From positions 9,098 through 73,097 of the forward strand of contig CBDDFN010000010.1 of NCBI GenBank assembly GCA_965227065.1: 64,000 nt of DNA, read 5' to 3'. The stretch is from Alphaproteobacteria bacterium. GTDB lineage: Bacteria; Pseudomonadota; Alphaproteobacteria; SPJN01. The notes beneath the pieces are model-generated. The model worked only from the letters and a program-made list of their open reading frames with translations. It ran no database searches and had not been told where the DNA came from. Every line of letters starts with the position of its first letter. Within the stretch, counting starts at the first letter, position 1. The translations under genes were made by a program, and so were the position numbers. Positions 24,354 through 41,463 of the stretch are shown piece by piece.

Positions 24354-25451
24354 TCAAGCGCCATAGCCAAAGGCCGCACCCGCCTTTGCCGTAATTGACC
24401 GGATCTGATCAATCTCGGCATCGGTGAAGCTTGGCTTGTAATAATTGGGCCGGTGGAACTTGCCCGACCATGTCTCGACAAAGCCGCCTGTGTCTTCAAG
24501 GGCGGCGTGGGCCACCAGCGCCTGGGCGGTTTCCGCAGACCGGTCACACAGATCCTCGTAACGGACAACCAGTATGGAGCCTGCAAGGTCTTCATCCTCG
24601 CGCATGCGCGCCACATGGGCATGGATGGAGGCCCAATACTGCGCCCAGCCCTCAACCTCGCGGCCCTCGGCCCACAGCTCAACCACTTTCTGGGTTTCGG
24701 CATCATTGCCCAGATGAATGGGCTTGCGGTCGGGACCGAATTCAAAATGGCCGACGCGGGCAAGATGGGCGAGCGCGCGGGGATTATTCTCACAGGCCTG
24801 GTTGAACAGCCGGTGCTGTTTGGCAAGCGAGGCAATATGGGTGACCGGGTCGCGCACCGGCACGATGAAGCGGGCATCGGGAAACAGCGCCTTCAGATAA
24901 GAAAAGCGCGCCAGATTGTAATTGCCTTTGGCGGCATAGCGGGTCTTGCCGCGCACCGCCAAAATCTTGCGGATATGATCGCGGTAAAACCCGTCAAAAT
25001 CGCCGCCGAGATCTGCCTTTGTGATGAGGTTTGAGCGGGCGGGATTGTGCGCCTTGTCAAAGAAGCTCATCCACAGCATCTCTTCCATCGCCTCGGGACT
25101 GTCGGGCGTGACCATGATGCCGTCTTTATGGGCGCGTTCGGTCGCCTCAACCTCGCCGCGCGGGGTCAGCTCCAGATAGCGGTTCCACCAGATCGGCGTG
25201 AACAGCGCGGGGAAGTCCGCATAATGATGGGTGCCCACGTTGGGATGATCGGCCAGGCATTCAAGCAGGATAGTCGTGCCTGACCGCGCCAGGCCCGACA
25301 CATAGATGGGGGCTGTAACCGACAGGCCCTCAAGCGCCTCTTCGGCCATGCCGGTTTCAAGCCCCGACAGTTTCTTTTGAAAGCCGCGGGTTGACCAGAT
25401 CAGGCCTGAAAACGCGTGCCGGCCCCATGAAACCTCAAAGCCGTCCGCCAT
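24354..25451 (-). CDS. Sulfotransferase family protein (PAPS-dependent type)
   Basis: 5'-PSB-like motif GLARSGTTILLE, 3'-PB-like region RDPVTHIASL. Start ATG 25451 shares the A of the upstream gene's TGA (TGATG coupling). Confidence 0.75.
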   Translation of the reverse strand: MADGFEVSWGRHAFSGLIWSTRGFQKKLSGLETGMAEEALEGLSVTAPIYVSGLARSGTTILLECLADHPNVGTHHYADFPALFTPIWWNRYLELTPRGEVEATERAHKDGIMVTPDSPEAMEEMLWMSFFDKAHNPARSNLITKADLGGDFDGFYRDHIRKILAVRGKTRYAAKGNYNLARFSYLKALFPDARFIVPVRDPVTHIASLAKQHRLFNQACENNPRALAHLARVGHFEFGPDRKPIHLGNDAETQKVVELWAEGREVEGWAQYWASIHAHVARMREDEDLAGSILVVRYEDLCDRSAETAQALVAHAALEDTGGFVETWSGKFHRPNYYKPSFTDAEIDQIRSITAKAGAAFGYGA

Positions 25452-25453
25452 CA

Positions 25454-26212
25454 GTTCACCTTGAAGATAAATTTGATCGCCAGTGAGCCTGCGATCAGCA
25501 GCACGAAATAAATCATTTCCCAACCGCCCAGCCAGCCCGGACTCAACCCCAGATAGTTGACCGATTTAAGCTCGAATTCGACCGCCTCGACCGGGCTGTC
25601 TTCGGGGATGTAGCCCAGCGGATTGGCAAACAAGGCGTTAAACCAGCCTTTTTTGTGCGCAATCGCAAAGGTCAAATCACCGGGCAGTGTGGCAATGGCA
25701 TTGGCATTGCCGTCAAACAGCTCGGTTTCGGTGCCCGACCAGACCAGCGTGTAGCGCCCCGCTTCGCCTTCAACCGGCGCGAGGCTCGGCGTGATCAGCT
25801 GCGCCTCCACAGGATGAACCTGCAGGGTCAGGCGCTCGCCCGCTTGCGGGGCGTGATAGGAGTAGCTGTTTGATAGCCAGCCCAGCACAAACAAGATCGG
25901 CAACCCGGCCAGGAAAGCCGGCCATAGCGTCAATCCCAGATGTTTGAGCGAAGCCATGACCGATTGTGCGGCGACAGGGCCAAGCCCGTCGGGCTCACCA
26001 TCATACTCGGCCAGTTCAGCGCGGGCGCGCTTGGCTTCAATCTTGGCTTTCTCGATCTTGTCCTGACTAGAAAACAGGACATAAAGCGCCATGGTCGCGA
26101 CCGATGACACAAGCGCAAAGATCGCGATTTGCAGTGCGCCGGGAAGACCGGACAAAAGGCTGAACCGCACAAAATCAAACACAGGTGCGGCAAGATCAAA
26201 CAAGCCCATCAC
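25454..26212 (-). CDS. Hypothetical integral membrane protein (N-terminal TM helix, coiled KIEKAKIEAKRARAEL segment, C-terminal TM)
   Basis: 253-aa ORF with no recognisable catalytic motif. Translationally coupled to the sulfotransferase. Confidence 0.5.
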
Positions 26213-26239
26213 AGTCCCCCCGAAAATGCAGTGCGTGGC

Positions 26240-26476
26240 TTATTCAGCCGCGGATTGATCAGTCGAAGCAGCGGCTTCGGCTTCATCCTTCTTCTTCTTC
26301 CGCGCACGGCGCAGCGGATAGGAAATCAGCGCCCACAGCGCCAGGCCAATGGCCGCCACAAGACCGATCGCGGCACCGATGGCTGTCACCCCTGCACCGG
26401 GGCCGACATAGGCCTGCGCCATGGTGGGCGCAAACGCGATCACAAGTGCGATCATGACAGAAAGGACACGAAGCAT
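26240..26476 (-). CDS. Small membrane protein (signal peptide-like plus one TM, KKKK anchor)
   Basis: 78 aa; MLRVLSVMIALVIAFAPTMAQA then GLVAAIGLALWALISYPL-RRARKKKK. Placed 2 nt downstream of the ASST gene. Confidence 0.4.
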   Translation of the reverse strand: MLRVLSVMIALVIAFAPTMAQAYVGPGAGVTAIGAAIGLVAAIGLALWALISYPLRRARKKKKDEAEAAASTDQSAAE

Positions 26477-26478
26477 GG

Positions 26479-27840
26479 TTAGTCTCCCACCAAAGAGCTT
26501 TGAGCGTCTTGCGCCGTGTCCGCCGCATTTCCAGCCGACAGACGCGCCCGCAAAGCATCGGGCAATTCATCAAGGTCCAGACGTTCGGCATAGGGAATAA
26601 TCGGCATTTCGTCCAGACCCGATTGCTCCCGAACCGGGTTAACATATTCCCACACCACCTGACCGGCTGGCGTGACTTCAAGCAGGCGGCCCGCCATGCT
26701 CTCCACAATCAGCGTATTGCCGCCTTTGAGGCGTTGCTGCCAGCTGGCCAGCAGGCTGTACATGCGTTCGTCCGACTCAGGCTTGGGGAATTGCCAGGCG
26801 ACCTGCATGGTTTCGGGGTCAATCTCGATCACCCGCGCACCAAGCCCGCGCGCGCCCGCACCGCGATTGTCATAAACCAGGATTTGGCCGTCATCGGTCA
26901 ATTCCGCATCATGCTGGCCGTAAAACGGCCCGCGCCGCGCCCACACAACCTTGCCGGTGGTTGCTGAAACGACCACAGCCGCTTCCAACTCACGCAAGGA
27001 CAGCATGAAATCACCGGCCTCCACGCCTTTTAAATTGGCAGCCTGCACCGCCGTCAGCGGCAAGACCGAGTTGGCATGGCTGATATCCCAGGTCATGTCG
27101 GGCGTATCGCCGTCATAAATCCATTCAAAGCCGGTCCCCAGCGCCGCATCCACCAGAGAAATCCGCCGCTCCACCTGGCCGTTCTGATCAAGAATGACGA
27201 TGAAATCCTCAAGCACCAGATCGCCGCCGCGTTTGACGAGCGGGGCGGGACTATCGTTCCATTCCTGGACCAGGGCCACGATGCGGCCATCCTCCATCAG
27301 ATTGAAATCATGATGGACATGGTCAAACAGGTGCCAGACGACATTGCCGTCAATGTCGAGCCGGGCAATGCCGCCGCCATAGGGCGTCACACCGACCAGC
27401 GCATAAAGGGCAACAATGCCGCCATCGGGCATGATCCGCGCTTTCCACACAAAGCTGCGCTTGCCGGCAAAGCCTTGGGGGACCGTGTCGCCCTCTTGCC
27501 AGATTTCGGCGTGCTCCCGGCTCCAGCGATAAAGCTCAGCGCCTTTTTCATCCAGCAACACCGCGCCGTGCAGATGCGCCGAAGTATGCAAGGTCAGCCC
27601 GCCCTCACTCAACGCAGGCTCGTGGCGCAGCAATCCGCCCTCGCGGCCGCGGTCGGGCTGCCAGGCGGGGTGGTCGAGATAGATGTCTTTGATCTGTATA
27701 TAAAGTGCGAACAAGCCATCAAGTGGCCGTTCAACGAAGGTGTAGGGGGGAACGCTCATCCGGGTTGACAAAACCCCGATCAAAAAGCCGAAAAAGGCGA
27801 GCGCCGCCGCAAAGGCCAGTGCTGAAATCACGCCGCGCAT
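26479..27840 (-). CDS. Arylsulfotransferase (ASST) family protein, membrane-anchored
   Basis: N-terminal TM. ASST-type beta-propeller signatures (HHDFNLMEDGRIVAL; DISHANSVLPL; ...VWEYVNP). Confidence 0.7.
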   Translation of the reverse strand: MRGVISALAFAAALAFFGFLIGVLSTRMSVPPYTFVERPLDGLFALYIQIKDIYLDHPAWQPDRGREGGLLRHEPALSEGGLTLHTSAHLHGAVLLDEKGAELYRWSREHAEIWQEGDTVPQGFAGKRSFVWKARIMPDGGIVALYALVGVTPYGGGIARLDIDGNVVWHLFDHVHHDFNLMEDGRIVALVQEWNDSPAPLVKRGGDLVLEDFIVILDQNGQVERRISLVDAALGTGFEWIYDGDTPDMTWDISHANSVLPLTAVQAANLKGVEAGDFMLSLRELEAAVVVSATTGKVVWARRGPFYGQHDAELTDDGQILVYDNRGAGARGLGARVIEIDPETMQVAWQFPKPESDERMYSLLASWQQRLKGGNTLIVESMAGRLLEVTPAGQVVWEYVNPVREQSGLDEMPIIPYAERLDLDELPDALRARLSAGNAADTAQDAQSSLVGD

Positions 27841-28009
27841 GGTTTTGAAATGCCCTTAAGCCCACAATTGTTGGTTGGAAAGCACTCTATAGGGGTGCGC
27901 GCGCGCAATCACCTCCCCCACAGCAAGTTTTTTATGACTGATGGTCGCAGACGCAAAGCAGACTTGACGGTTGAAAGGCTTCGCCCTATACCGCAATCCC
28001 TTCACTTTC

Positions 28010-28085
28010 GGGGCCGTAGCTCAGTTGGGAGAGCGCAGCAATCGCACTGCTGAGGTCAGGGGTTCGACTCCCCTCGGCTCCACCA
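28010..28085 (+). tRNA. tRNA-Ala (anticodon CGC), CCA encoded
   Basis: GGGGCCGTAGCTCAGTTGGGAGAGCGCAGCAATCGCACTGCTGAGGTCAGGGGTTCGACTCCCCTCGGCTCCACCA. G3:U70 Ala identity pair. Anticodon loop ATCGCAC. Confidence 0.9.
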
Positions 28086-28344
28086 ATTTTCTTCGAAAAT
28101 TGTTTTCGCCTTCGGTCTGTCCGTTGGCACAAAGTTCGACAGAGTTCGAACTTTGCGCGGGGGGGCCCCACCAATTTTCTTCGAAAATTGTTTTCGCCTT
28201 CGGTCTGTCCGATGGCGCAAAGTTCGATCGGGTTCGACCTTCGTGCGGGGGGCTCCACCACTATCCGCTATGCGGATATTGGGGCCACCCCGGTTTTCCG
28301 ATCGTCCAAATTCTCAATCGAATTTGTCCGCAGGGGCTCCACCA
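28086..28344 (+). repeat. Tandem array (2 intact + 1 degenerate unit) of a ~87-88-bp element, each ending in a tRNA 3'-end-like GG(G/C)(C/T)CCACCA
   Basis: Unit 1 (28086-28173) = ATTTTCTTCGAAAATTGTTTTCGCCTTCGGTCTGTCCGTTGGCACAAAGTTCGACAGAGTTCGAACTTTGCGCGGGGGGGCCCCACCA. Unit 2 (28174-28260) is near-identical. Unit 3 (28261-28344) has a diverged interior but ends GGGGCTCCACCA. Confidence 0.85.
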
Positions 28345-28379
28345 ATTTGCGCTTGGCACGCTCGACGTTGCAAGAATTA

Positions 28380-28952
28380 TCAGGCCGGACGCACCGCGCT
28401 TTGTAGCTCACCGGGATGACCCGGTGGCAATCCGGGGTCTTGCATCGGGCCAAGCCCGACCAGCCCATCAACCCAGACGCGAAAATCCTCGGAGTAATTG
28501 TTGCGGGTTAGTTGCCACCACGAGATCGCGCCGGGCCGGGCCATGATGGTCATCAGGCTCGCTGCGGACGATTGCCAGATTTCCTTGGTCTGGTGACCGG
28601 CCTTGTAATGAATGTACCCGGTCTGTGCGATTGACAACATGCCGCCCAAAAGGATGGAGACCCGAACCAGTTCCGATGCATTAAGCGTGCTCAAATCTCC
28701 GCCACCCTTCATCAGCAAATCCGCCAGGTCTTTGTTGCCGGCAACTTCAAGGGTGAAAGATTGATGCATCTGCGCACCGCTGATCTCAAGCGCGAGCGTG
28801 TTGGACAGGCGATTGAGGCGCAACTGCTGCGTGTTCTGGTTGAGCTGGATGCCAACAAACACCAGCGAACCAACCACAATTACCGCCGCGACAATCTCGG
28901 CAATATTGCTTATCGTCTCCAGCATCCCAGTCTCCCCTGCCGAATTTCGCAA
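28380..28952 (-). CDS. Hypothetical membrane protein
   Basis: N-terminal TM (IAEIVAAVIVVGSLVFVGIQL). No motif recognised. C-terminal ~30 aa are low complexity, so the 3' boundary is uncertain. Confidence 0.4.
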   Translation of the reverse strand: MRNSAGETGMLETISNIAEIVAAVIVVGSLVFVGIQLNQNTQQLRLNRLSNTLALEISGAQMHQSFTLEVAGNKDLADLLMKGGGDLSTLNASELVRVSILLGGMLSIAQTGYIHYKAGHQTKEIWQSSAASLMTIMARPGAISWWQLTRNNYSEDFRVWVDGLVGLGPMQDPGLPPGHPGELQSAVRPA

Positions 28953-29010
28953 GGATATTTCATTTAGTGTTGAGATGAAAGCAGGATTCGGAGCGACCGT
29001 CCCGGTTGCG

Positions 29011-29565
29011 CTACCACCGCATCATGGGCATGGGATTGAGCGGATGCCTGGGGACCCAGCCGCCGGCAATCCGCACCAGCGCCTTGTGGAAACCCTGATT
29101 GGGATAAAGCGCCCGGATGGCTTTAAGATCGGCGCCCCTGGCGCCAAAGCGTACCAAACCGATACTGACATCGGAATAATCGGCCCGGCGGAACCACTCC
29201 CCCCAGTTGGGCGCATCACCGCGCGCGGGGACCGCCGTCAACTTGTGATGCTCCATCACCATATCGGCGACAGCCTCGGACCATTTGGTTAGCCCGCGCG
29301 CCACCAATTCCTGCTGGGCATGGGCGTTGGACGGCTCAAGATAATCAAAGGTGCCATCAAGCCAGATGCCCGCATCATGATAGACACAGGCAATGGCAAG
29401 CGCGGTCAGTTCCCCATCGCCGGGTTGGTAGTCAGGCGCCAGGCTGCGCTGGTGCACCAGGGTGGTTTCATAGACCCGGCGGCAATGATTGCCATAGCCG
29501 CCCAAGTCCCGGCCGATCGCCTCTTTGTGGCGGTCCAGCAATTCGGTAATCAGATCCTGGCTCAT
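29011..29565 (-). CDS. HD-domain-like protein (putative metal-dependent phosphohydrolase)
   Basis: 184 aa with H...HD...HH...D spacing (NHCRRVYE; CVYHDAGIW; MEHHKL; RRADYSD) reminiscent of the HD superfamily. Confidence 0.45.
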   Translation of the reverse strand: MSQDLITELLDRHKEAIGRDLGGYGNHCRRVYETTLVHQRSLAPDYQPGDGELTALAIACVYHDAGIWLDGTFDYLEPSNAHAQQELVARGLTKWSEAVADMVMEHHKLTAVPARGDAPNWGEWFRRADYSDVSIGLVRFGARGADLKAIRALYPNQGFHKALVRIAGGWVPRHPLNPMPMMRW

Positions 29566-29651
29566 CGTGCTCCCTCTCCCGCAGACCCTGCATGATCAGG
29601 ACCAGGCAGGAGTTGCGCAACCCCACCGGCGGAGTGGGCGGCGAAAAGCGG

Positions 29652-30533
29652 TCAGGATCGTTCCCGGTCATCCAGCAGCGCCAGCCCGAAGAACCGGCCC
29701 TTGATGATCCATGACAAGCCAAAGGCCCACATGGCAATGGCTTCGACAATGAAGGTGACATTGTTGGGGTCCCACCAATGAACATCATGGCCATTGATCT
29801 GTTCGACAGCCGTTTTGGTCCCCATTGCCAGCAGCACGCACACAATGGTGATGGCCGCCGCGCGATAGAAGAAATTGCGGCGGCGCTTGGCAGGCTTGAG
29901 ATTGCCTTGCGCATCATAATGTTCGCCGGGGATGATGCGGGTAAACACAAAGCCCGAATAATAGGCCAGAAACAGAAAGAAGATCACCGCCGTCACATTA
30001 TGGATCATGTCGGAGGGCTGGATCAGCACGAACAAATCGGCCGTGTCGGGCGGCAACACCCCGATGGCTTCGCCGGGCGTGCCGGTGGACTGGAACGACA
30101 AAAATGCCCGGCCATCAAACACTTGCTTTTCGCACCCGCTATGAGATGCGGGGAAAAGCGCGTTGGAGAGCGCGCACAGGCCCGCCAGTGTGGCCAGCCG
30201 GTTTTCCCATTTGTTTTCGCCGCTATAGGCGATGAGAAACGAGCCGATAAAAATCAAGCTGGCGGAAAAAACACCGCCCCAGAACCGGGCATAATAATAA
30301 TGAGATATGGAATCATAATAACAAGCGCCGAGAACTGATCCCAATAACAGAACAAGGGGCAAGGTCAGAGAAATGATTCCGACCATAGCCGCCATCAATC
30401 TCTGACGAATACGATAATATTCGTTTTCAGGTGCCCTCGCGCTCGAATCGGGTTGAAATCTCTGTTCCGGCGCGTCGATGAGTAATGACATCATGTCCCC
30501 CGACATGTCCCTCAACGCAAAATATATCCCCAC
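29652..30533 (-). CDS. Hypothetical polytopic membrane protein (AT-rich, foreign-looking codon usage)
   Basis: 293 aa with ~7 hydrophobic segments. The DNA is strikingly AT-rich relative to flanks (e.g. ataataataatgagatatggaatcataataacaagc). Confidence 0.5.
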   Translation of the reverse strand: MGIYFALRDMSGDMMSLLIDAPEQRFQPDSSARAPENEYYRIRQRLMAAMVGIISLTLPLVLLLGSVLGACYYDSISHYYYARFWGGVFSASLIFIGSFLIAYSGENKWENRLATLAGLCALSNALFPASHSGCEKQVFDGRAFLSFQSTGTPGEAIGVLPPDTADLFVLIQPSDMIHNVTAVIFFLFLAYYSGFVFTRIIPGEHYDAQGNLKPAKRRRNFFYRAAAITIVCVLLAMGTKTAVEQINGHDVHWWDPNNVTFIVEAIAMWAFGLSWIIKGRFFGLALLDDRERS

Positions 30534-30801
30534 GCACTTTTCATTTTAATAGTACATTTTCACTATTTTTTGACGGAATAGGGTCTTGGCTGCGCCCGCC
30601 CGCCCACGTCCGCAGGGCGTGTCTGCCCCTGTATCTGCAGGTCGGCGCCGGTTCAATGCTCCCCCCTTTTTATTTCGTGTACAGTGTATTATAAGTCGCT
30701 CGCTTCCATTCACGCGTCGCGGTGAGCGGAACACGGGCAGGGCTTTGGGGGGCCTGGGCTTGACCGGCATTTGCCGCGCGCACAGCCAATACGGGGCCAT
30801 T

Positions 30802-31653
30802 ATGTCCAACACATCCACACCTGATGCTCAGGCCAAGGCTGACGAGGTTTCAGCCAACGTCAATGAAGAGCAGAACTATGGTGCCAATCCCGTCGAAATG
30901 CGCGAGACCGATCACTATCAGGACGAATATGTCTACGGCTTCGTCGACAAATGGGACCAGCTCATCGACTGGGAGGCGCGCGCCAGGTCCGAAGGCCAGT
31001 TTTTTATCGATATTCTCAAGGCGCGCGAGAAAAAGACGGTTCTGGACGTTGCAACCGGGACAGGCTTTCATTCTGTTCAGTTGATGAAAGCAGGGTTTCA
31101 TGTCGTTTCCGCCGACGGGTCAGCGGAAATGCTGACCAAGGCGTTCGACAATGCGCGCGACCGCGATCTGGTGCTGAAAACAACACAGGCCGACTGGCGC
31201 TGGCTCAATCAGGACATTCACGGCAAGTTTGATGCCGTCATCTGCCTGGGCAATTCCTTCACCCATATTTTTGACGAGCATGACCGGCGCCGCGCCTTTG
31301 CCGAGTTCTATGCCGCGCTCAAACATGACGGCATCCTGATCCTCGATCAGCGCAATTATGACGCCATTCTGGATGTCGGCTTCCAGTCCAAGCACAAATA
31401 TTATTATTGCGGCGATCAGGTGTCGGCCGAACCTGAATATGTCGATGACAGCCTCGCCCGGTTTAAATATGAGTTTGCCGACGGCTCAAAATATCACCTC
31501 AATATGTTTCCTCTACGAAAGAATTATGTCCGCAAGCTGATGACCGAAGCGGGATTTCAGCGCGTGAAAACCTATGGCGATTTTCAGGAAAGCTATGAGG
31601 AAAACGAACCCGACTTTTTCGTCCATGTCGCGGAGAAATCTTACGATGAATAA
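30802..31653 (+). CDS. Glycine/sarcosine N-methyltransferase (GSMT)
   Basis: ATG 30802. GNMT-fold motifs VLDVATGTGFHSVQLMKAGF, DAVICLGNSFTHIFD, ILILDQRNYDAIL, FFVHVAEK parallel the GNMT/GSMT family. Confidence 0.85.
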   Translation: MSNTSTPDAQAKADEVSANVNEEQNYGANPVEMRETDHYQDEYVYGFVDKWDQLIDWEARARSEGQFFIDILKAREKKTVLDVATGTGFHSVQLMKAGFHVVSADGSAEMLTKAFDNARDRDLVLKTTQADWRWLNQDIHGKFDAVICLGNSFTHIFDEHDRRRAFAEFYAALKHDGILILDQRNYDAILDVGFQSKHKYYYCGDQVSAEPEYVDDSLARFKYEFADGSKYHLNMFPLRKNYVRKLMTEAGFQRVKTYGDFQESYEENEPDFFVHVAEKSYDE

Positions 31654-32485
31654 GCAAAGCCCCGAAGCCATTGAAATCGCTGAAAATTATTATGACAGCA
31701 CGGATGCAGACAATTTCTACCATGCGATCTGGGGCGGCGAAGATATTCACATCGGCCTGTATGAGCCCGGCGATACGATTGCGGAAGCCAGCCACAAGAC
31801 CGTGCTGGCCATGGCTGAAAGGTTGTATGGCCTGGATCACACCTCCAAGGTGCTCGACATCGGGTCGGGCTATGGCGGGGCGGCGCGCGTTCTGGCGCGG
31901 AAATATTCCGCCCTTGTGACCTGCTTGAACCTGTCCAAGGTTGAAAATGACCGCAACGCGCAAATGAATGCCGACCAGAACCTGGCCCACAAGATCACGG
32001 TGGAGCATGGCTCATTCGACGCCATCCCGGCCGATCCCGGCAGCTTTGACATTGTGTGGTCACAGGATGCGATCCTGCACGCGCCCGACCGGCTGAAAGT
32101 GCTGGATGAAGTGGCACGTGTTCTGAAGCCCGGCGGTCAGTTCATTTTTACCGACCCCATGCAGGCTGACGGTTTGACTGACACCGACGCGCTGACGCCT
32201 ATTCTGGAACGGATTCATCTGCCCAACCTTGGTTCAATCGAGTTTTACCGCAAAGCACTGGCCGAACGCGGCTTTGACGAAGTGCGGGTCGATGTGCTGA
32301 CCCATCAGTTGCGCGCCCATTATGCCCGCGTCGGTGAAGAGCTTGCAGCCCAGCGCAGCGCTCTGTCGGACAAAATTTCCGATGAATATGCCGAACGCAT
32401 GCTCAAAGGGCTGCAACATTGGGTGGACGGTGCCGACAAGGGATTGCTCGCCTGGGGCATCCTGCATTTCAAAAAGGCGGGATAA
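31646..32485 (+). CDS. Sarcosine/dimethylglycine N-methyltransferase (SDMT)
   Basis: ATG 31646 overlaps the GSMT stop (ATGAATAA). SDMT hallmark YYDSTDADNFYHAIWGGEDIHIGLY and SAM motif VLDIGSGYGGAARVLA. Confidence 0.85.
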   Translation: MNKQSPEAIEIAENYYDSTDADNFYHAIWGGEDIHIGLYEPGDTIAEASHKTVLAMAERLYGLDHTSKVLDIGSGYGGAARVLARKYSALVTCLNLSKVENDRNAQMNADQNLAHKITVEHGSFDAIPADPGSFDIVWSQDAILHAPDRLKVLDEVARVLKPGGQFIFTDPMQADGLTDTDALTPILERIHLPNLGSIEFYRKALAERGFDEVRVDVLTHQLRAHYARVGEELAAQRSALSDKISDEYAERMLKGLQHWVDGADKGLLAWGILHFKKAG

Positions 32486-32578
32486 TGCCCGCCCCGCCGG
32501 CCCGCCACGGGCGCGCCACCCAAGGTTGGCTCAAAGGGACTGAACCCCGCCGTTGCACTGACGGCAAAAAGCCTTGTT

Positions 32579-34033
32579 TTGGTCTTTGTCCTGTTTGGCG
32601 TGTTGATGCAGGACAGCGCCTCGGCGCTGTTCACCACCCTGAAAGACGGCATTATCGCCTCGGTGAGCTGGTTTTATATCGGCGCGGTAACCGGCTGCCT
32701 GATCCTTGTTATCTGGTTGATGGCCAGCCGGTTTGGCGCGATCAAGCTGGGGCGGACCGATGAAGAACCGGAATTTTCGTATGTCAGCTGGTTTGCCATG
32801 CTGTTTGCCGCCGGCATGGGCATCGGCCTGATCTTCTGGAGCGTGGCGGAGCCGGTCACCCACTTTATCGGCAATCCGTTCGTGGCCGATGGCGAGACAC
32901 CGCGCGCCGCGCAGGTTGCCATGCGCCTGACTTTTCTGCATTGGGGTCTGCACCCCTGGGCGATCTACGCTTTGGTCGGTTTGATCTTTGCCTATTTCGG
33001 TTTCCGCAAGGGCCTGCCGCTGACGCCGCGCTCGGCCCTGCATCCCATAATCGGTGATCGCATCTATGGCCCGATCGGCCATACGGTGGATATCTTGTCG
33101 GTCTTTGCCACAACATTCGGCGTTGCCACCTCGCTGGGGCTGGGGGCCAAACAGATCAATACCGGGCTTGAGCATCTGTTTGGCCTGTCAGTGTCGACAG
33201 GACATCAATTGCTGATCATCGGGGTGATTACGCTGATCGCGGTGACGTCGGTCGTGTCGGGCCTGGAACGGGGCATAAGGCTGTTGTCGGAAGCCAATCT
33301 TTGGCTGTCGGTCGTATTGCTGGGCTTTGTGCTCAGCTTCGGGCCCACCGCCTATATGATTGACACGCTGCTGCAATCGACGGGCGACTATCTGCAAAAC
33401 ATTGTGGCGTTGAGTTTCTGGACCGACGCCAATCAGAACCGCGGATGGCAGGCAAGCTGGACCACATTTTACTGGGGCTGGTGGCTAAGCTGGGCGCCCT
33501 TTGTGGGATTGTTCGTCGCGCGGATATCGCGCGGACGGACCATACGTGAATTTGCGTTCGGCGTGCTGCTGGTGCCAACCTTGCTGACCTTTGTATGGCT
33601 GTCGGTGCTGGGAGGCGCCGCCCTTCATGCCGAACTGCATGGCGCAGGCGGGATGGTGGCGGCGGTGCAAGACGATGTGACCTTGTCGCTTTACGCGCTG
33701 ATCGAACTGCTCTCACCAGGGGTGATCGGCACCATCATGGCCGGTGTCGCAACCATTTTGATCATCACCTATTTTGTAACCTCGTCAGACTCCGGCACGC
33801 TTGTGGTCAACACCATCTTGTCGGTCGGTGACACCAATCCACCGGTGACCCACCGGGTGATCTGGGGGGTCAGCGAAGGGGCGGTGGCCGCCGTTCTGCT
33901 GCTGGCAGGGGGATTGAAGGCGCTTCAGGCTGCGGCGATTTCGGCTGCTTTGCCTCTGGCCATTATTCTGGTGCTGATGACTTACGGGTTTATCAAGGCG
34001 CTTTATCAGGACATGCCCAGCAAGCATCACTGA
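32579..34033 (+). CDS. BCCT family transporter (betaine/carnitine/choline type)
   Basis: 484 aa. BCCT signature region FAMLFAAGMGIGLIFWSVAEPVTHF and a Trp-rich TM8-like segment (GWQASWTTFYWGWWLSWAPFVGLFVARISRGRTIREF). No ATG/GTG precedes TM1 in frame, so the start is TTG 32579 or CTG 32558. Confidence 0.85.
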   Translation: MVFVLFGVLMQDSASALFTTLKDGIIASVSWFYIGAVTGCLILVIWLMASRFGAIKLGRTDEEPEFSYVSWFAMLFAAGMGIGLIFWSVAEPVTHFIGNPFVADGETPRAAQVAMRLTFLHWGLHPWAIYALVGLIFAYFGFRKGLPLTPRSALHPIIGDRIYGPIGHTVDILSVFATTFGVATSLGLGAKQINTGLEHLFGLSVSTGHQLLIIGVITLIAVTSVVSGLERGIRLLSEANLWLSVVLLGFVLSFGPTAYMIDTLLQSTGDYLQNIVALSFWTDANQNRGWQASWTTFYWGWWLSWAPFVGLFVARISRGRTIREFAFGVLLVPTLLTFVWLSVLGGAALHAELHGAGGMVAAVQDDVTLSLYALIELLSPGVIGTIMAGVATILIITYFVTSSDSGTLVVNTILSVGDTNPPVTHRVIWGVSEGAVAAVLLLAGGLKALQAAAISAALPLAIILVLMTYGFIKALYQDMPSKHH

Positions 34034-34506
34034 TCCGATTTCGGGATTTCGCCGACATCGAGAATGGGCGAAGCGTCGAGCGCTTCGGCGTCCATCATTT
34101 GCGCCACCCGTTCCAGCGCGGCGCGGAGCATATGCTGTTCCCAGACCTCTAATTTGGTGAATTCGCGGGTAAAGTTGGACTGCATGAGTTCGGGTGCATC
34201 GGCAAGCCGGGACTGGCCCGCCTCACTTAGGGTCACCTCGACAACCCGCCGGTCGGTTTGCGAGCGTGTCCGTGTCACCAACCCGGCACGTTCAAGCCGC
34301 TCCACCACAGCGGTCACGGTGGCATGGGCAAGACTGACATCCTGGGCGACCGCGCCGATGGAGGGCGAGCCTTTCCGGCTGATCGATTGCAGGACGAGCA
34401 ATTGGGGAACCGTGAGGCCGGAGCGTTTCACCAGCTGTTTGGAATGCAGGTCAATCGCGCGGGTGATCCGGCGAATGGCCACCAGAATATCATCAAACTC
34501 GTCCAT
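34027..34506 (-). CDS. MarR family transcriptional regulator
   Basis: Winged HTH (LTVPQLLVLQSISRKGSPSIGAVAQDVSLAHATVTAVVERLERAGLVTRTRSQTDRRVVEVTL). Confidence 0.8.
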   Translation of the reverse strand: MDEFDDILVAIRRITRAIDLHSKQLVKRSGLTVPQLLVLQSISRKGSPSIGAVAQDVSLAHATVTAVVERLERAGLVTRTRSQTDRRVVEVTLSEAGQSRLADAPELMQSNFTREFTKLEVWEQHMLRAALERVAQMMDAEALDASPILDVGEIPKSDQ

Positions 34507-34571
34507 GCATCGGGCATCCAAGACAAAGAAGCCGGTCTTTTATCCCGTTCCCGGCGCGGGGAAAAGCGGCT

Positions 34572-35862
34572 TTACGCTTCATCCAGGAAACTCTTCAGCG
34601 TTTCATAAAGCAGCTTGGCGCCCTGTTCGATGTCATTCCAATGGGTCCATTCGTCAGGCGCATGGCTGATGCCGCCCACCGAGGGGACGAAAATCATGCC
34701 CGCCCGGGTAAACTCCGCCATAAACTGGGTGTCATGGCCCGCCCCTGAGGGCATGGTCTGGTGGCTCAATCCCAATTGCTGGGCAAAGTGGCTGAAGCGG
34801 TCAATCACATCGGGGTGGCATGGCGCGGGATCCAGCCAGCTCAACTCATCAAAATCAAAATGCAGATTGTGTTTGCGCGCGATGGCCGACAGGGGTCTTG
34901 CGGCAGGCCAAACCGATGGCCTTCATCACCTCAAGATCAATATCGCGGCCAACCAGAGAGAATTCCGCCTCGCCGGGAACCGTGTGGGGATTGCCCGGTT
35001 TCAGCTCAACCTTGCCGACGGTCAGCCGGCTTTTGTCGGTGCCTTCCTCGGCAATGATGCGCGGGATTTCATGGGCAAAATCAGCCAGCCCCATAAAGGC
35101 GTCCGAGCGCATATTCATCGGCGCGGTGCCCGCATGGTTGGCCTTGCCGCCAAGGCGCACCATCCATTTGAACACGCCCGAAATGCCTTCAACAACACCG
35201 ATCTGCTTGCCGGTCTGTTCGAGCACCGGGCCTTGTTCAATATGCAGCTCACAAAAGGCGTGGACAGAGCCCGGTGCGCGGCGCGCATCAAGCGCACGGT
35301 CGGGATCAAAGCCCTGCGCGGTCATGCAATCGGTCAGCTTTTCGCCCGATGCCGTGCGCGCCTGATGGATCCATTCAAGCGTCGTCGTGCCGGTCAGCGC
35401 CTGCACACCGAACATGCCGCCAAACCGGCCCTCTTCATCGGCAAAGGCCACCACTTCAAAGGGCCGTTCCGGCGGTGTGGGCAATGCGGACAAAACCCGC
35501 GCGCATTCAAGGCCCGCCAGAACCCCCAGCGTGCCATCAAACATGCCGCCTGCCGGAACACTATCAATATGTGATCCGGTCATCACACAGGGCTTGTCGC
35601 TGTCGAACCAGCGGCCAATGACATTGCCCGCCTCATCCATGCGTGCGGTGCCGCCCGCTTCGGTGATCTTGGCCATCAGCCAGTGACGCGCCTCCATATC
35701 CTGGGCCGTGAAGCCAAGGCGGAACACGCCGGGTTCCTCGCCGCGCTTGCCGATCTGGGCCAGTTCAAGAAGGTCAGACCGCAACCGGTCAAGCACGATA
35801 CCGTCCGCCGGGGCGGTGTCTGTGCCGGGTTGAACGGACATGGATGATGATTTGTAACTCAT
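34572..35862 (-). pseudogene. M20-family Zn-amidohydrolase (N-carbamoyl-L-amino-acid hydrolase / allantoate amidohydrolase type), split by a single frameshift
   Basis: Two adjacent minus-strand ORFs (35862..34855 and 34844..34572) together cover one AmaB/AllC-like protein (GSHIDSVPAGGMFDGTLGV ... HAGTAPMNMR ... GAGHDTQFMAEF...IFVPSVGGISHAPDEW). The frame changes near 34880-34895 (...AIGLA | AARPLSAIARKHNLHFDFDELSW...). Confidence 0.7.
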
Positions 35863-36079
35863 TGTGCCTCGTCTTTAGGCATTTACACGCAAAATAATTA
35901 TAATGCCTTCGTCAAATTTGACGACCGCGATTCGTTTCTTTATGATCATAAACGTGACCGGCCCCGAAGAAAATTTCTTGCGGGGCTTTCGTTTTTTGCC
36001 CACCTACGCGGGCCCAACGCAAAGCGAGAGAGCTCCGCCCCTTCGCGTGACCTTTAGCGTTAGAACAAATATCTTCGCT

Positions 36080-36463
36080 ATGCTGATCGGCCTTGTCGCT
36101 GTTATCGCCACCCCCGCGCTCGGCCTCGAGCTGCGCAATGCCGACGCGCGGGCCGGATTTGCAAGCCTGGGCTGGACCGATGCGCCCGATGGTGAAGCCG
36201 TGCTTGAATGGAATGACGGCACGGGCTGGCAGGAACTTTATCGCGGCACCGACAAAGCAAGCACCGTCACCGGCCTTGACGAAGGCGCGTATCAATTCCG
36301 GCTTGTCGCCCCCGATGGTACAGTGTCCGAGCCGTTGACCTTTACGGTTGAGCATCACGCGCTGAGCCTTGCCCTGCAATTTTTCGGGGCCGGGGCGCTC
36401 TTGTTCGTCTTGCTGATTGCCCTGCTTGTCCGGCCCACCCCCGACACGGGATCGCCGTCATGA
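36080..36463 (+). CDS. Small exported/membrane-anchored protein (signal peptide, beta-rich domain, C-terminal TM), coupled to the SSS transporter
   Basis: MLIGLVAVIATPALG signal, then ...WTDAPDGEAVLEWNDGTGWQELYRGTDKASTVTGLDEGAYQFRLVAPDGTVSEPLTFTV (FN3-like pattern), then a TM. Stop overlaps the SSS start (ATGA). Confidence 0.5.
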   Translation: MLIGLVAVIATPALGLELRNADARAGFASLGWTDAPDGEAVLEWNDGTGWQELYRGTDKASTVTGLDEGAYQFRLVAPDGTVSEPLTFTVEHHALSLALQFFGAGALLFVLLIALLVRPTPDTGSPS

Positions 36464-37887
36464 TCGAGCACGCCGTGCTGGCCCCGCAAACAGCCGCCAT
36501 CATCATTGCCCTGTTCGGTGTTTTCTGGATCGGGCTTGGCTGGTGGATCGGCCGGTCCAACAAAACGCTGGATGATTTCATGCTGGCGGGCCGCAATGTC
36601 GGGCTGGGGCTTGCCGCAGCCACCGCCATGGCCACCTGGGTGACGTCCAACACCACGATGGTGGCCCCGCAATTGACCTATCAGCTTGGCATTTGGGGGA
36701 TGGTCGGCTATTCGCTCGGCGCAGTCGGGCTGCTGCTGTTTGCCCCGCTCGCCCGGCGGATTCGCGAGATCATGCCGCACGGCTTTACCAGCGGTGATTT
36801 CATCCGCCGCCGCTACGGTACGCTGGCCTGGGCCGTCTTTCTGATTATATCCTTCTTCTATGCGCTGGGCTGGCTGATCACGCTGGGCATGGCCGGTGGC
36901 GTGCTGGTCGAGGCCCTGTCTGGTATTCCCTATCTCTACGGCATGTCGGTGATTGTGCTGGTCTGTACGCTTTACACCGTCTTTGGCGGATTGCGCGCGG
37001 TGATCGGCACCGACTTTGTGCAGACCGTGATCATTTTGGTGGGCGTTGCTCTCATTGCTTATCTTGTGCTCGACAAGGTCAGCTTTGAAACCATCCACCA
37101 ATCCCTTGAAGCGGAACGTCCGGGGCTGCTCAATCTGTTGCTGCCCGCCTCGATCATGTTCTTGTTCAACAATCTGTTTTTCGGTGTGGGCGAGATTTTC
37201 CACTCCAATGTGTGGTGGAGCCGCGCGTTCGCCTTCGGCCGCCATGTTGGCTTTAAAGCCTATTTGCTGGGCGGACTGCTGTGGCTTCCCGTCCCGATTG
37301 TGGCCGGTTTTGTGGCGCTGGCAGCGCCGGCACTGGGCGTCAATGTGCCGTCCGCCGATATGGTCGCGCCGTTGGTGGCGGGACAAGTGCTGGGCGAAGT
37401 TGGGGCCATCCTGGTCTTTATCGTTGTTTTCGCAGCGCTCGCCTCAAGCCTTGATTCGGTGCTCGCGGCAACCGCGGACCTGATCAGCAATGACATTGTC
37501 AAAGGCCTGTTCTGGAAAACCGCCAGCGATGATCAACTGCGCAAGGTCGCGCGCAACACGATCCTGATATTGGGCCTCGCTGTGTGGCTTGTCTGCTTGA
37601 TCCGGGTGTCGACCCTGGGCGAGTTGTTGCAGTTCACCGGCGCGTTTGTGGCCAGCACCATCTGGCCCATTGCCATCGGGCTTAAAACCAATCGCCTGGG
37701 TAATCTGGGTGCCGCGCTCGCCATGGCTGTGGGGACCGCCACCGGCCTGTGGGCGTTTTTTGCCATCGGCTTTTACACCGCCGCTTTGGTCGCAACCGGC
37801 GTATCACTCATCATCAGCGTGATCTTTGTGCTGAGCGACGGCACACGGTTTGATTTCGAAAAATTGCGCGAGGAGGCCTCCTCATGA
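36460..37887 (+). CDS. Sodium:solute symporter (SSS) family transporter
   Basis: 475 aa, ~13 TM. SSS family features (FMLAGRNVGLGLAAATAMATWVTS; GGLRAVIGTDFVQ). Confidence 0.85.
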   Translation: MIEHAVLAPQTAAIIIALFGVFWIGLGWWIGRSNKTLDDFMLAGRNVGLGLAAATAMATWVTSNTTMVAPQLTYQLGIWGMVGYSLGAVGLLLFAPLARRIREIMPHGFTSGDFIRRRYGTLAWAVFLIISFFYALGWLITLGMAGGVLVEALSGIPYLYGMSVIVLVCTLYTVFGGLRAVIGTDFVQTVIILVGVALIAYLVLDKVSFETIHQSLEAERPGLLNLLLPASIMFLFNNLFFGVGEIFHSNVWWSRAFAFGRHVGFKAYLLGGLLWLPVPIVAGFVALAAPALGVNVPSADMVAPLVAGQVLGEVGAILVFIVVFAALASSLDSVLAATADLISNDIVKGLFWKTASDDQLRKVARNTILILGLAVWLVCLIRVSTLGELLQFTGAFVASTIWPIAIGLKTNRLGNLGAALAMAVGTATGLWAFFAIGFYTAALVATGVSLIISVIFVLSDGTRFDFEKLREEASS

Positions 37888-38003
37888 TTTCAGCTGCCTT
37901 TCTGGAAATGCTGGTCTGGCCCGCGCTGATCCTTGTTTCCCTTTCCCCGGTCGTCCTGATCGGTTTGTTGCTTAAAGACGTGAAGGACAAAACCCTATGG
38001 TGA
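37884..38003 (+). CDS. Micro-ORF: 39-aa single-TM peptide, ATGA-coupled to the SSS transporter stop
   Basis: MISAAFLEMLVWPALILVSLSPVVLIGLLLKDVKDKTLW; AGGAGG lies 7 nt upstream. A second 36-aa ORF (37997..38107, MVTEDLKDQVEFDRSRPDIYGDVHPKELIPEYSGRL) overlaps its end. Confidence 0.3.
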   Translation: MISAAFLEMLVWPALILVSLSPVVLIGLLLKDVKDKTLW

Positions 38004-38138
38004 CAGAAGACTTAAAGGACCAGGTCGAATTTGACCGGTCCCGCCCCGACATTTACGGCGATGTTCACCCCAAGGAACTGATCCCAGAATATTCAGGAAG
38101 ATTATGAGCCTTTAACGGGGCTCGATAGCCAGCACATC

Positions 38139-39069
38139 GTGTCGGCCAAGCAGTTCAACCGGGATATGCTGCTGCAACTGTTCCGGCTGGCCGCCAAGTT
38201 TGAGGCCAATCCGCGGCGCTATTCCAATCCGCTGAAGGGCAAGGTTCTGATCTCGGCCTTTTATGAACCCAGCACGCGGACGCGCCTGTCCTTTGAAAGC
38301 GCGTGGCACCGCATGGGCGGTGACATCATGTCGATCACAGACCGCGCCACCACCGGCATCGCCAAGGGTGAGTCGCTCAGTGACATTGGCGAGATGTTCA
38401 ACAATTACGGCGACTGTGTCGTGCTGCGCGACGTCAATGCGGGATCGGTGTTCGAGATGGCGCAAAGCCTGCGTGTGCCGATCATCAATGCGGGCAATGG
38501 CGTGGATGAGCATCCCACCCAGGCACTGGCTGACCTTTATACGATCCTGAAATGGCGGCCCGCCCTGCTTGACCCCAAATGCGAAAAAATCCGCATCGGC
38601 ATTGTCGGTCTGCCCAACCGGATGCGCACGGTGCGCAGCCTGCTGATCATGCTGTCGCATTTTTCCTACGCGTTCGAAGAAGTCGTCGTCATTCATGACG
38701 GCAAGCGCCAGGAACTGTTCGGCGCGGGCCAGCGTGAGGAGCTTGAGAAGGCGGGGCTGACTATCCGCGAAACCACCGTGTTGCGCGATGAACTGCCGGG
38801 CCCTCGACGTGGTCTATATCAATGCCATTGTGTGGGAGAAGGACGATTTTCAGGTCATGAATGACGCCTTCCGGCTGGACCGGACCTCCCCGCTCAAACA
38901 AGGCGCGATTGTCATGCACCCGCTGGCGCGCGGTGACGAGCTCGACACCAGCCTCGATGACACGCCGCACAATTGGTATTTTGCGCAAGCGCGCGGCGCG
39001 GTCTTTGTCCGCCAGGCTCTGCTGACCTGCCTGGTCCAGCGGATCGACCGTGTCATGGATGTGATCTAA
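38139..39069 (+). pseudogene. Aspartate-carbamoyltransferase-like (ATCase/PyrB-fold) transcarbamoylase, split by a single frameshift
   Basis: GTG 38139. Carbamoyl-phosphate motif STRTRLSFE, and HPTQ (ATCase-type, not OTCase HPxQ). The C-terminal half continues in another frame from ~38795 (ALDVVYINAIVWEKDD ... VMHPLARGDEL ... NWYFAQARGAVFVRQALL). Confidence 0.7.
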
Positions 39070-39088
39070 CAAAAGGAAGTCTCTGAGT

Positions 39089-41113
39089 ATGTGCGGCATT
39101 GCCGGTATTTTTCACCGCGACCCTCAACAGCCCCTCGACCGCCAATTGCTCGCCAATATGGCGGCGATCCAGTATCATCGCGGCCCCGACGAATTCGGCG
39201 TGCGCTGCATGGATGATCGCGGCATTGGCTTTTCCCATGCCCGCCTGTCGATCATTGATCTGGACGAAACCCGGGCGCGTCAGCCTTTTGAAAGCAAGGA
39301 TGGCCGGCTGCTGCTTGCCCATAATGGCGAATTCTATGACTTCAAGCGCATCCGCGCTGATCTGACCAGCCGGGGCGACCGCTTCCAGTCAAAGTCGGAT
39401 TCTGAAATCATTCTGGGGCTTTATCCCCGGCTGGGGCTTGAAAAAACCCTGATCAATCTGCGCGGCGAGTTTGCCGTGGCGCTGTATGACAAGGACGAGG
39501 ACGCGCTGTTTCTGGTGCGCGACCGCTTCGGCGTCAAGCCGCTTTACTGGACGATGACCGAAGACGGGCTGGTGTTCGGTTCTGAAATCAAGGTGCTGTT
39601 TGCGCATCCCAAAGTGGAGCGGCGTCTTCATGAAGAAGGCGTGCTGCACCAGCTCATTCAGGTGATGGTGCCCGGCACCACCGCCTTTGAAGGGGTGCAT
39701 CAGATCAAGCCGGGCCATGTGCTGCGCGTCAAACGCTCGGGCACCAGCTTCCAGATCGATGATCTGCAATATTGGGATTATGAGTTCCCCCATGCTGATG
39801 CCCATCACGATCCGCGCAGTGAAGCGGACAATATCGAGCTTGTCCGCGAAAAGCTGCTGGAGGCGGTGACGCTGCGCCTTGAGGCAGACGTGCCGGTCGG
39901 CTGTTATCTGTCGGGCGGGATCGATAGCTGTTCAATCCTGGGACTGTCTGCCGCCGTCCGGCAAGACCCGGTGAAGGCGTTCACCATCGGCTTTGATGAC
40001 GCCGATTATGACGAAACCCCGGTCGCAACCGAGATGGCTGAGGCCACCGGCGCGGATCAGGAGGTGCTGCGGCTTAACGCCAATCATCTCTACGGGCATT
40101 TTGAAAAGACGCTGTGGCATACAGAGCGGACCATCTACAACACGCTCGCGGTCGCCAAATATCTCATGAGCCAGCGGGTCAATGAGCTTGGCTACAAGGT
40201 TGTGCTGACCGGTGAGGGCTCTGATGAGCTGTTTGCAGGCTATCCCGCCTTCCGGCGCGATCTGTTCCTGCACGGCCTGCCTGATTTGGACGCTGATGAG
40301 CGCAAGACCTGGGAATCCATGCTGGGCGAGTCAAATGCCTTGTTCAAAGGCGCCATGCTGGCCGAGGATGAGCTTGATGACCCCCATCTGTCGGCCAAGA
40401 TTGGTTTCACGCCCAGCTGTTTGCAGCCCTGGCTGGCCTGCACGCACACGGCACGCGGGCTCATGCAGGCCGATTTGCGGGAGCGGTTGACCCGTTACCA
40501 TCCCGGCGAGGCGATTGCAGATACGTTCGACACGACAGCCCTGTCGGGGCGGCATCCGCTCGACCGGGCTCAATATGTCTGGTCGAAAACCATGCTTGAG
40601 GGTCAGATCCTGACCTGGGGCGGGGACCGGGTTGATATGGCCAATTCGATGGAGGCGCGGCCCGCCTTCCTTGATCATCATCTGGCTGCAGCCGCTGTCA
40701 CCATCCCGCCCATTCACCGCATCAAGGAGCGTAAGGAAAAATATGTCCTGCGCGAAGCGATGAAAGGGCTTTTGCCCAAAGTGCTCTATGAGCGTGAGAA
40801 ATTCGCCTTCATGGCCCCGCCCGCGCACACCGATCAGCAAAAATGGGCATCCATGATGGTGCTCGCTGATGAGCATCTGTCAGACGAGGCGGTCACAGCG
40901 GCGGGCGTGCTTGATCACAAGGCGGTTCACGACATGCTCGAAGAAGCGGTGGCCGATGAAACCAGCCGGGCACGTAAAGTCCAGCTTGATGCGGTGATCA
41001 ACCATGCGCTTGGCGTGCAGATCCTGCACAAGCATTTTATCGCCCAGGATGTTCCCGCCCTGGCCGCCCAGCGCGCCAAGGAACTGGGCTGGAGCGCCGA
41101 GCGCGCCGCTTAG
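39089..41113 (+). CDS. Asparagine synthetase B-family glutamine-hydrolysing amidotransferase (long, 674-aa form)
   Basis: N-terminal nucleophile MCGIAGIF. PP-loop SGGIDSC. An extended ~120-aa C-terminal region beyond canonical AsnB. Confidence 0.85.
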   Translation: MCGIAGIFHRDPQQPLDRQLLANMAAIQYHRGPDEFGVRCMDDRGIGFSHARLSIIDLDETRARQPFESKDGRLLLAHNGEFYDFKRIRADLTSRGDRFQSKSDSEIILGLYPRLGLEKTLINLRGEFAVALYDKDEDALFLVRDRFGVKPLYWTMTEDGLVFGSEIKVLFAHPKVERRLHEEGVLHQLIQVMVPGTTAFEGVHQIKPGHVLRVKRSGTSFQIDDLQYWDYEFPHADAHHDPRSEADNIELVREKLLEAVTLRLEADVPVGCYLSGGIDSCSILGLSAAVRQDPVKAFTIGFDDADYDETPVATEMAEATGADQEVLRLNANHLYGHFEKTLWHTERTIYNTLAVAKYLMSQRVNELGYKVVLTGEGSDELFAGYPAFRRDLFLHGLPDLDADERKTWESMLGESNALFKGAMLAEDELDDPHLSAKIGFTPSCLQPWLACTHTARGLMQADLRERLTRYHPGEAIADTFDTTALSGRHPLDRAQYVWSKTMLEGQILTWGGDRVDMANSMEARPAFLDHHLAAAAVTIPPIHRIKERKEKYVLREAMKGLLPKVLYEREKFAFMAPPAHTDQQKWASMMVLADEHLSDEAVTAAGVLDHKAVHDMLEEAVADETSRARKVQLDAVINHALGVQILHKHFIAQDVPALAAQRAKELGWSAERAA

Positions 41114-41170
41114 CAACGTATTTGGGGTGGCGTGCCGCCCGAAGCGCGCAAGTGGCTCTTGGGTGACGGG

Positions 41171-41387: not shown

Positions 41388-41463
<76 letters not shown>

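Follow-up and report, generated by a model that had tools for sequence, protein, structure and literature searches.

Gene pair for probable glycine methylation and the linked transporter

The window analysed here is a 64,000-nucleotide stretch of contig CBDDFN010000010.1 (assembly GCA_965227065.1) from an uncultured alphaproteobacterium, in which two adjacent methyltransferase genes are followed by genes for a BCCT-family transporter and a MarR-family regulator. The two methyltransferases are assigned to glycine/sarcosine N-methyltransferase (GSMT) and sarcosine/dimethylglycine N-methyltransferase (SDMT), and on the strength of sequence comparison they probably synthesize glycine betaine from glycine, a reading to which we give a probability of about 0.85. 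GSMT and SDMT share the 8 nucleotides ATGAATAA (31646-31653), the SDMT start codon lying within the last codons of GSMT, and the SDMT stop codon overlaps the start of the transporter gene in a TAATG; these overlaps suggest that the three genes are translationally coupled. The MarR gene is convergent with the transporter gene and overlaps its end by 7 nucleotides. The first-pass annotation had proposed the same two enzymes at the same coordinates and with the same overlap, and the motifs it quoted, DAVICLGNSFTHIFD, ILILDQRNYDAIL and YYDSTDADNFYHAIWGGEDIHIGLY, are all found in the translations; it had also placed a BCCT transporter and a MarR regulator beside the pair, as borne out by matches to PF02028 (E 2e-190) and PF01047.

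The first protein passes the NCBIfam equivalog model NF051855 (485.6 bits, with the cutoff at 350; alignment over positions 1-258 of 259) and aligns without gaps to the crystallised GSMT of Methanohalophilus portucalensis (MpGSMT; PDB 5gwx), with 70.5% identity over 258 aa and an E value of 3.4e-130. In MpGSMT, R167, Y206, N134, H138, and M218 are the substrate residues, Y26 and Y185 serve as catalytic tyrosines, R43, L132, and T70 contact the cofactor, and D35, I38, D39, W40, N100, and H104 line a betaine feedback pocket (PMC5146677). Fifteen of these 16 functional residues are identical in the window protein, where Y26, R43, N134, and H138 correspond to positions 43, 60, 151, and 155, and R167, Y185, Y206, and M218 to positions 184, 202, 223, and 235. 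Within the betaine pocket, five of the six residues are identical, H104 being replaced by Arg, the commonest residue at this position (64 of 84 relatives). The substrate and catalytic residues, together with D35, W40, and N100 of the pocket, are invariant or nearly so across GSMTs (83-84 of 84), and the gene is under purifying selection, with a ratio of nonsynonymous to synonymous substitutions (dN/dS) of 0.08 against its homolog in the metagenome relative L082. By family score and residues, the protein is a GSMT (EC 2.1.1.156) that is predicted to methylate glycine and sarcosine, and since the pocket of the archaeal enzyme is kept, its feedback inhibition by betaine is likely.

Comparison of the second protein with the SDMT equivalog model NF041675 revealed an end-to-end alignment (positions 3-277 of 278, E 6e-101), the next family reaching only E 1.7e-16, with a score of 338 bits that lies below the model's cutoff of 550. 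The protein and the Galdieria SDMT (PDB 2o57; E 2e-71) share 47% identity, and among characterised SDMTs the identity is itself no more than 48-58% (PMC3176816). Methyl-acceptor residues have been reported as D158 and H162 in the Galdieria enzyme (GsSDMT) and as P171 and M172 in the dimethylglycine methyltransferase (DMT) of A. halophytica (PMC3176816). All four are kept in the alignment, as D141 and H145 within WSQDAILH and as P171 and M172 within FTDPM. The dN/dS ratio of the gene is 0.06 against L082 and 0.27 against the more distant relative L083, to which SDMT is 65% and GSMT 84% identical. Based on these comparisons, the second protein is classed as an SDMT/DMT-type enzyme (EC 2.1.1.157) that is predicted to act as its characterised counterparts do but scores below the curated membership threshold.

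The third gene encodes a transporter that scores above the cutoff of TIGR00842 (524 bits against 407) and below that of the nearest betaine model, NF047988 betaine_BCCT (587 bits against 650); betaine is its probable substrate. Its true start is the ATG at 32485 and not the TTG at 32579 given in the list of open reading frames (ORFs): an extra G at 32536, placed by alignment, causes a +1 frameshift that splits off the first 17 codons and leaves the N-terminus MPAPPARHGRATQGWLKG out of frame with the remainder in the window. The gene is in frame in the relatives L081, L083, and L084. L084, a contig from another data set that is 98.8% identical to the window over 4.3 kb, is without the extra G, although it covers only the 5' part of the gene (approximately the first 115 codons); the sole other indel between the two sequences is at 30747, and both positions lie in runs of G. 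The dN/dS ratio of the transporter gene is 0.06 against L082. Two more genes further along also appear broken, an allantoate-amidohydrolase-like M20 gene (34572-35862, minus strand), split near 34850 into 335 aa and 90 aa, and an OTCase-like gene (38139-39080, plus strand) with a change of frame near 38850; by sequence, both frameshifts are apparently near short G/C runs. The three frameshifted genes thus cluster at 32.5-38.9 kb. By contrast, the stretch at 6.6-30.5 kb has 24 syntenic genes, every one of them intact. The frameshifts may reflect either errors of the consensus in a variable region or genuine decay. The reading frames of GSMT and SDMT are intact.

Table 1. Coordinates of the four module genes and of associated features in the window.
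Feature	Position	Strand	Remarks
GSMT	30802..31653	+	ATG 30802 to TAA 31653, 283 aa
SDMT	31646..32485	+	ATG 31646 to TAA 32485, 279 aa
BCCT-family transporter, probably betaine	32485..34033	+	frameshifted in the window
MarR-family regulator, EctR-like	34027..34521	-	Pfam PF01047
Conserved upstream block, candidate promoter and operator	30665..30696	+	homology to L081 begins at 30665
Sequence conserved upstream of the MarR start, right end of the module	34522..34548	-	L081 homology ends at 34548
tRNA-Ala and repeat array	28010-28261	+	tandem copies of tRNA 3' end
tRNA-Ala and repeat array	41137-41463	-	tandem copies of tRNA 3' end

Module conservation and chromosomal surroundings

An identical four-gene layout is present in the two nearest metagenome relatives, whose GSMTs are 88% (L081/L082) and 84% (L083) identical to that of the window. 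The extent of nucleotide homology with the 88% relative L081 delimits a module of approximately 3.9 kb (30665-34548), which includes approximately 137 nucleotides upstream of GSMT and 27 nucleotides upstream of MarR. Inspection of the flanks revealed no repeats at the two module borders. The neighbours of the module differ by lineage, with Tad and polyhydroxyalkanoate (PHA) synthase genes in one, type II secretion and FMO genes in another, and genes for small membrane proteins in the window. The module proteins are 82-90% identical to those of L082, and all four genes are under purifying selection (dN/dS 0.06-0.10). Core genes have diverged to a comparable degree: over 24 syntenic core proteins, identity to the metagenome contig L087 is 66-99% (mean of approximately 85%), SecA is 89% identical to its homolog from the same Joint Genome Institute (JGI) sample as the 88% GSMT relative, and the synonymous divergence of the module is of the same order as that of the core genes. 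In a neighbor-joining tree (without bootstrap), the window GSMT clusters with its two relatives within a large, mostly alphaproteobacterial clade.

The genes around the module are those of an ordinary core chromosome, including aspartate kinase, ptsP, gcpE, prfA, argJ, secA, aroA, cmk, rpsA, pyrF, trpFBA, accD, and folC. The host had been described as an alphaproteobacterium, in agreement with the best named SecA matches, which belong to Hyphomicrobiales and Parvibaculales (68-71% identity); these homologs fix the placement to the class only, near the two orders. Scans of the small neighbour proteins of 190, 184, 293, and 186 aa with PADLOC and Pfam gave no match.

The module lies between two inverted tRNA-Ala genes with CGC and GGC anticodons, 13.1 kb apart. 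Behind each of these genes come two or three tandem units of 87-88 nucleotides that start with the tRNA 3' end GGCTCCACCA. The units contain a 10-bp hairpin with modest folding z-scores (-0.4 to -2.6) and matched no Rfam family, and the two tRNA arms form a 171-nucleotide inverted repeat that is 92% complementary. The tRNA-Ala gene of L087 is also followed by repeated GGCTCCACCA copies, with different spacers. In L087 and in a further contig, L088, synteny with the window extends from gcpE to tRNA-Ala(CGC), and no module is present in the 1.3-1.5 kb covered beyond the tRNA. Instead, L087 carries homologs of the 293-aa and 184-aa proteins at 21716-22730, in reversed order and orientation relative to the window (28380-30533), and L088 carries only the 184-aa homolog, also reversed (21505-22059). 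The stretch downstream of tRNA-Ala(CGC) is a rearrangement hot spot in this lineage. A simple inversion of the whole segment between the two inverted tRNA-Ala genes was considered and rejected, because the gene order of L087 does not fit it.

Further features of the window lie outside the module. Just upstream of tRNA-Ala(CGC), a minus-strand block (24354-27840) encodes a sulfotransferase, two small proteins of unknown function, and an arylsulfotransferase-like protein, and this block is kept in both relatives. At 54800-55747, also on the minus strand, lies a gene of the MbnB/TglH/ChrH family (PF05114, E 1.8e-102), whose members modify precursors of ribosomally synthesized and post-translationally modified peptides (RiPPs). 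A same-strand ORF just downstream (53995-54807) overlaps it, and the two may form a small RiPP cluster.

The linked regulator and upstream elements

The spacer upstream of GSMT (30534-30801) had been described as an AT-rich promoter region, a description that its composition does not support: its GC content is 0.571 against 0.596 for the window, other spacers in the window are at 0.51-0.57 (six of seven) or 0.60 (the seventh), and AT-rich sequence is confined to short patches at approximately 30534-30580 and 30667-30696. The conserved upstream block (Table 1) holds TTTCGTGTACA (30673-30683) and -10-like boxes, TATTAT/TATAAG (30687-30695). In a comparison of three upstream sequences, it was the only upstream stretch seen to be common with L083. 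The pattern TTT[AC]GT[AG][CT]AC[AT] has a single occurrence in the 64-kb window and recurs at the matching place in L081, L083, and L084. A simple sigma-70 scan, uninformative for this host, returned no plus-strand site upstream of GSMT, so that the promoter is assigned to the block by inference. A terminator scan, likewise uninformative for this host, found none between the genes, and a permissive Rfam search of 27500-42000 for riboswitches or leader RNAs gave only the two tRNAs and noise.

The MarR gene keeps its position in L081/L082 (82% identity) and L083 (66%), and the sequences upstream of it have ACGGGATAAAA..CCG..TTCTTT in common. Comparison with the PDB gave generic matches only. A metagenome scan identified homologs of the regulator at 19 loci (48-54% identity), none of which is linked to GSMT. 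In at least four distinct lineages, these homologs stand next to and divergent from ectA-ectB-ectC(-ectD/ask), which is the position of ectR, and curated models identify the ect neighbours as EctA, EctB, EctC, ectoine hydroxylase, and aspartate kinase of the ect-linked type. Specifically, the window protein is 51.7% identical over 149 aa to the regulator at locus L098, whose neighbours match TIGR02406 (EctA), TIGR02407 (EctB), and NF009806 (EctC). EctR1 represses ectABC-ask, and at low salinity its relative CosR does so for ectoine genes, for betIBA-proXWV, and for a BCCT gene (PMC7876524; PMC5924519).

A palindrome, TTAGW-N2-WCTAA, was identified once per locus and only in the ectA-ectR spacer of three lineages (L093 at 649, L098 at 5876, and L103 at 2113), and TTAGWNNWCTAA is likewise confined to the ectA-ectR spacers of three lineages; we propose the palindrome as a candidate EctR operator. 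The operator of EctR1 is presumably TATTTAGT-GT-ACTATATA, and a near-identical string is found in the ectA upstream region of L093. L093 contains TATTTAGTGTACTATATT as well.

The membership of the window MarR protein in a clade of regulators that stand beside ectoine genes makes it plausibly an osmoregulatory repressor of the operon. That it does repress GSMT, SDMT, and the transporter gene is a tentative proposal, and it is equally tentative that an EctR-type MarR protein was recruited to glycine methylation, giving a self-contained 3.9-kb osmoregulated module that would relocate within the genomes of this lineage without a recombinase of its own. In the literature searched, no description of a dedicated transcriptional regulator of the GSMT/SDMT pathway was found.

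Interpretation, distribution, and known systems

Several observations weigh against the interpretation of the module as an active, regulated, and vertically inherited betaine pathway. The glycine-to-betaine pathway costs three S-adenosylmethionine (SAM) per betaine, and none of the SAM-recycling genes (metK, ahcY, metF/metH) was seen among the scanned ORFs of the window. The SDMT score falls short of the curated cutoff, and judged by sequence this enzyme may use sarcosine besides dimethylglycine or dimethylglycine alone. Owing to its frameshift, the transporter may be inactive in this genome. The MarR gene is convergent with and not divergent from the operon, it could be co-transcribed with the upstream amidohydrolase gene, and the upstream block of GSMT (TTTCGT-GT/AC-ACA) resembles one half of TTAGW-N2-WCTAA only. 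Finally, the comparison of module with core genes joins L082 (module) to L087 (core genes) through a shared JGI sample and parallel identity rather than through a single contig, and because the module is placed differently in every relative, exchange between close relatives is conceivable.

The first-pass annotation had viewed the locus as a mobile-looking island acquired horizontally, and insertion at a tRNA-Ala integration hot spot would indeed accommodate the presence of the module at a different chromosomal site in each of three related lineages, the lack of a module immediately beyond tRNA-Ala(CGC) in L087 and L088 with reversed neighbours in L087, the tandem copies of the tRNA's own 3' end after the tRNA, and the cluster of frameshifted genes, as would be seen in accessory DNA. 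The GC content of GSMT, 0.52 against 0.60 for the window, seems to point the same way, but it stems from a low value at second codon positions (GC2 of 0.33) and hence from amino-acid composition, while GC at third positions (GC3) is 0.63 for GSMT and 0.67 for SDMT and 0.63-0.74 across the module, within the range of window genes (0.59-0.75). Moreover, none of the 33 window ORFs scanned against Pfam is an integrase, transposase, phage, or plasmid gene, and all ORFs of at least 60 aa in 28.1-38 kb and of at least 200 aa up to 41.4 kb are accounted for. The inverted rather than direct tRNA-Ala copies, the identity and synonymous divergence from the nearest relative, which match those of core genes, and the nesting of GSMT among alphaproteobacterial GSMTs further argue against a recent import, which we regard as unlikely. 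Nothing points to a recent arrival from a distant donor, and we somewhat favour vertical descent with relocation, which would make the module a trait of the lineage. Taken jointly, betaine synthesis and an ordinary, not recently imported, origin are probable.

Real frameshifts under relaxed selection between the two tRNA-Ala genes would instead describe a cassette in decay, in line with the concentration of broken genes (BCCT, M20 amidohydrolase, OTCase-like) at 32.5-38.9 kb next to a fully intact syntenic stretch. This is rather unlikely, given that GSMT and SDMT are intact, that the transporter gene shows a low dN/dS against L082 and is in frame over its 5' part in the nearly identical L084, and that the indels fall in G runs or apparently near short G/C runs, as is typical of consensus errors. 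It is also conceivable that the pair does not make betaine, either because the second enzyme methylates another small amine or because the pathway ends at dimethylglycine or sarcosine. The low SDMT score, the merely generic names that its relatives carry in NCBI, and its faster divergence compared with GSMT (65% against 84% identity to L083, with the dN/dS of 0.27) are compatible with such a scheme; yet the SDMT model aligns from end to end with no other family approaching it, all four published substrate-binding residues are kept, the identity to the Galdieria enzyme is close to that among characterised SDMTs, adjacency to GSMT is fixed, and a betaine-type BCCT gene comes next, making this alternative very unlikely.

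With betaine synthesis as the preferred reading, the locus would constitute a compact chromosomal osmoadaptation module. A single transcript would carry GSMT, SDMT, and BCCT. GSMT would convert glycine to sarcosine and dimethylglycine with SAM as the methyl donor, SDMT would perform the last step or steps to glycine betaine, and the BCCT transporter would import or recapture betaine, which in turn would probably feed back on GSMT through the conserved pocket. The MarR protein may repress the operon when osmolarity is low, acting through the conserved block located approximately 110-135 nucleotides upstream of GSMT. The module as a whole appears to have diverged in step with core genes while its chromosomal position changed between related genomes.

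The pathway itself is widely distributed. At E<=1e-20, GSMT homologs fall into 3703 clusters (90% identity), and at E<=1e-30 those of SDMT fall into at least 5452; with one genome scanned per species, GSMT is present in at least 576 species. Among the best 80 GSMT genomes, 71 carry an alphaproteobacterial label, with cultured carriers in Hyphococcus, Glycocaulis, Maricaulis, Marinicauda, Caenispirillum, Stappia, Chelativorans, and Parasphingopyxis. A homolog of SDMT adjoins GSMT in 79 of these 80 genomes, the exception being a contig of 1.6 kb. In 17 the fetched flank includes BCCT, which in 14 of them stands directly downstream in the same orientation, and a MarR homolog is near GSMT in one, a Myxococcota genome in which it is divergent from GSMT. 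Clusters of this methyltransferase pair (GMT-DMT) have been described in Sphingomonadales, Hyphomonadaceae, Rhodobacterales, Rhodospirillales, and Rhodothalassiales, and betT/BCCT is reported to be joined to the pair in other phyla, with Chloroherpeton and Rhodopirellula as examples (Imhoff et al. 2020, PMC7824335). A review nevertheless considers de novo betaine synthesis rare in aerobic heterotrophs (PMC7876524). The first-pass annotation had shared this view, calling the route rare and classically restricted to a few extreme halophiles; in light of the species and cluster counts, and with the pair already listed in this class (PMC7824335), that premise is outdated, though still repeated in reviews.

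The pathway, both enzyme families, and their occurrence in Alphaproteobacteria are thus already documented, the gene pair is common in marine and saline members of the class, and the gain for basic knowledge is small. Three points are modestly new: a module of four genes that includes an EctR-like regulator, the change of its location among related genomes, and a gap in the annotation of alphaproteobacterial SDMTs. JGI gives SDMT relatives at 60-68% identity the name sarcosine/dimethylglycine N-methyltransferase, whereas in NCBI the same relatives are only named methyltransferase domain-containing protein, a generic naming that covers proteins P0245-P0362 among the alphaproteobacterial SDMT relatives. 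A score below the NF041675 cutoff, as found for the window SDMT, would explain these names, and the pattern fits a whole alphaproteobacterial SDMT branch lying under the curated cutoff. As a consequence, surveys of genomes by name would miss copies and undercount a pathway that extends far beyond the few extreme halophiles pictured in reviews. The linked EctR-like gene, in turn, provides a concrete candidate regulator for glycine methylation.

Comparison with known systems places the window enzymes close to their characterised counterparts. Mammalian glycine N-methyltransferase (GNMT; e.g. PDB 1bhj) belongs to the same fold family as GSMT, and the first 165-180 residues align (E 5e-21). It is, however, a distant match only and adds a single methyl group to glycine, whereas the wider pocket of GSMT (H138 and M218) and the betaine pocket are both kept in the window protein. 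As in Halorhodospira halochloris, Aphanothece halophytica, and M. portucalensis, the pathway is encoded by two adjacent class I SAM methyltransferase genes, GSMT followed by SDMT; the catalytic, substrate, and betaine-pocket residues of the M. portucalensis GSMT recur in the window GSMT, and the substrate residues of known SDMTs recur in the window SDMT. Unlike the clusters of Halorhodospira and some Rhodobacteraceae, the window cluster is without SAM-cycle genes, and in contrast to the fusions of Rhodobacteraceae, Rhodospirillaceae, and Actinopolyspora, its two genes are separate. It further differs from known GSMT/SDMT systems in that its SDMT appears to belong to the alphaproteobacterial branch below the NCBI cutoff.

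EctR1 of Methylomicrobium alcaliphilum and CosR of Vibrio are MarR winged-helix proteins, as is the window regulator, which is likened to them through its approximately 52% identity to metagenome regulators in the ectR position. CosR controls osmolyte synthesis and a BCCT gene in Vibrio, and the window MarR is linked to genes of these kinds. Unlike EctR1 and CosR, it accompanies genes of glycine methylation, not ect or betIBA, and is convergent rather than divergent, and the strict palindrome of the ectR-ectA spacer is missing upstream of the window GSMT. In comparison with known GSMT/SDMT systems, the window module is set apart by the inclusion of a MarR gene.

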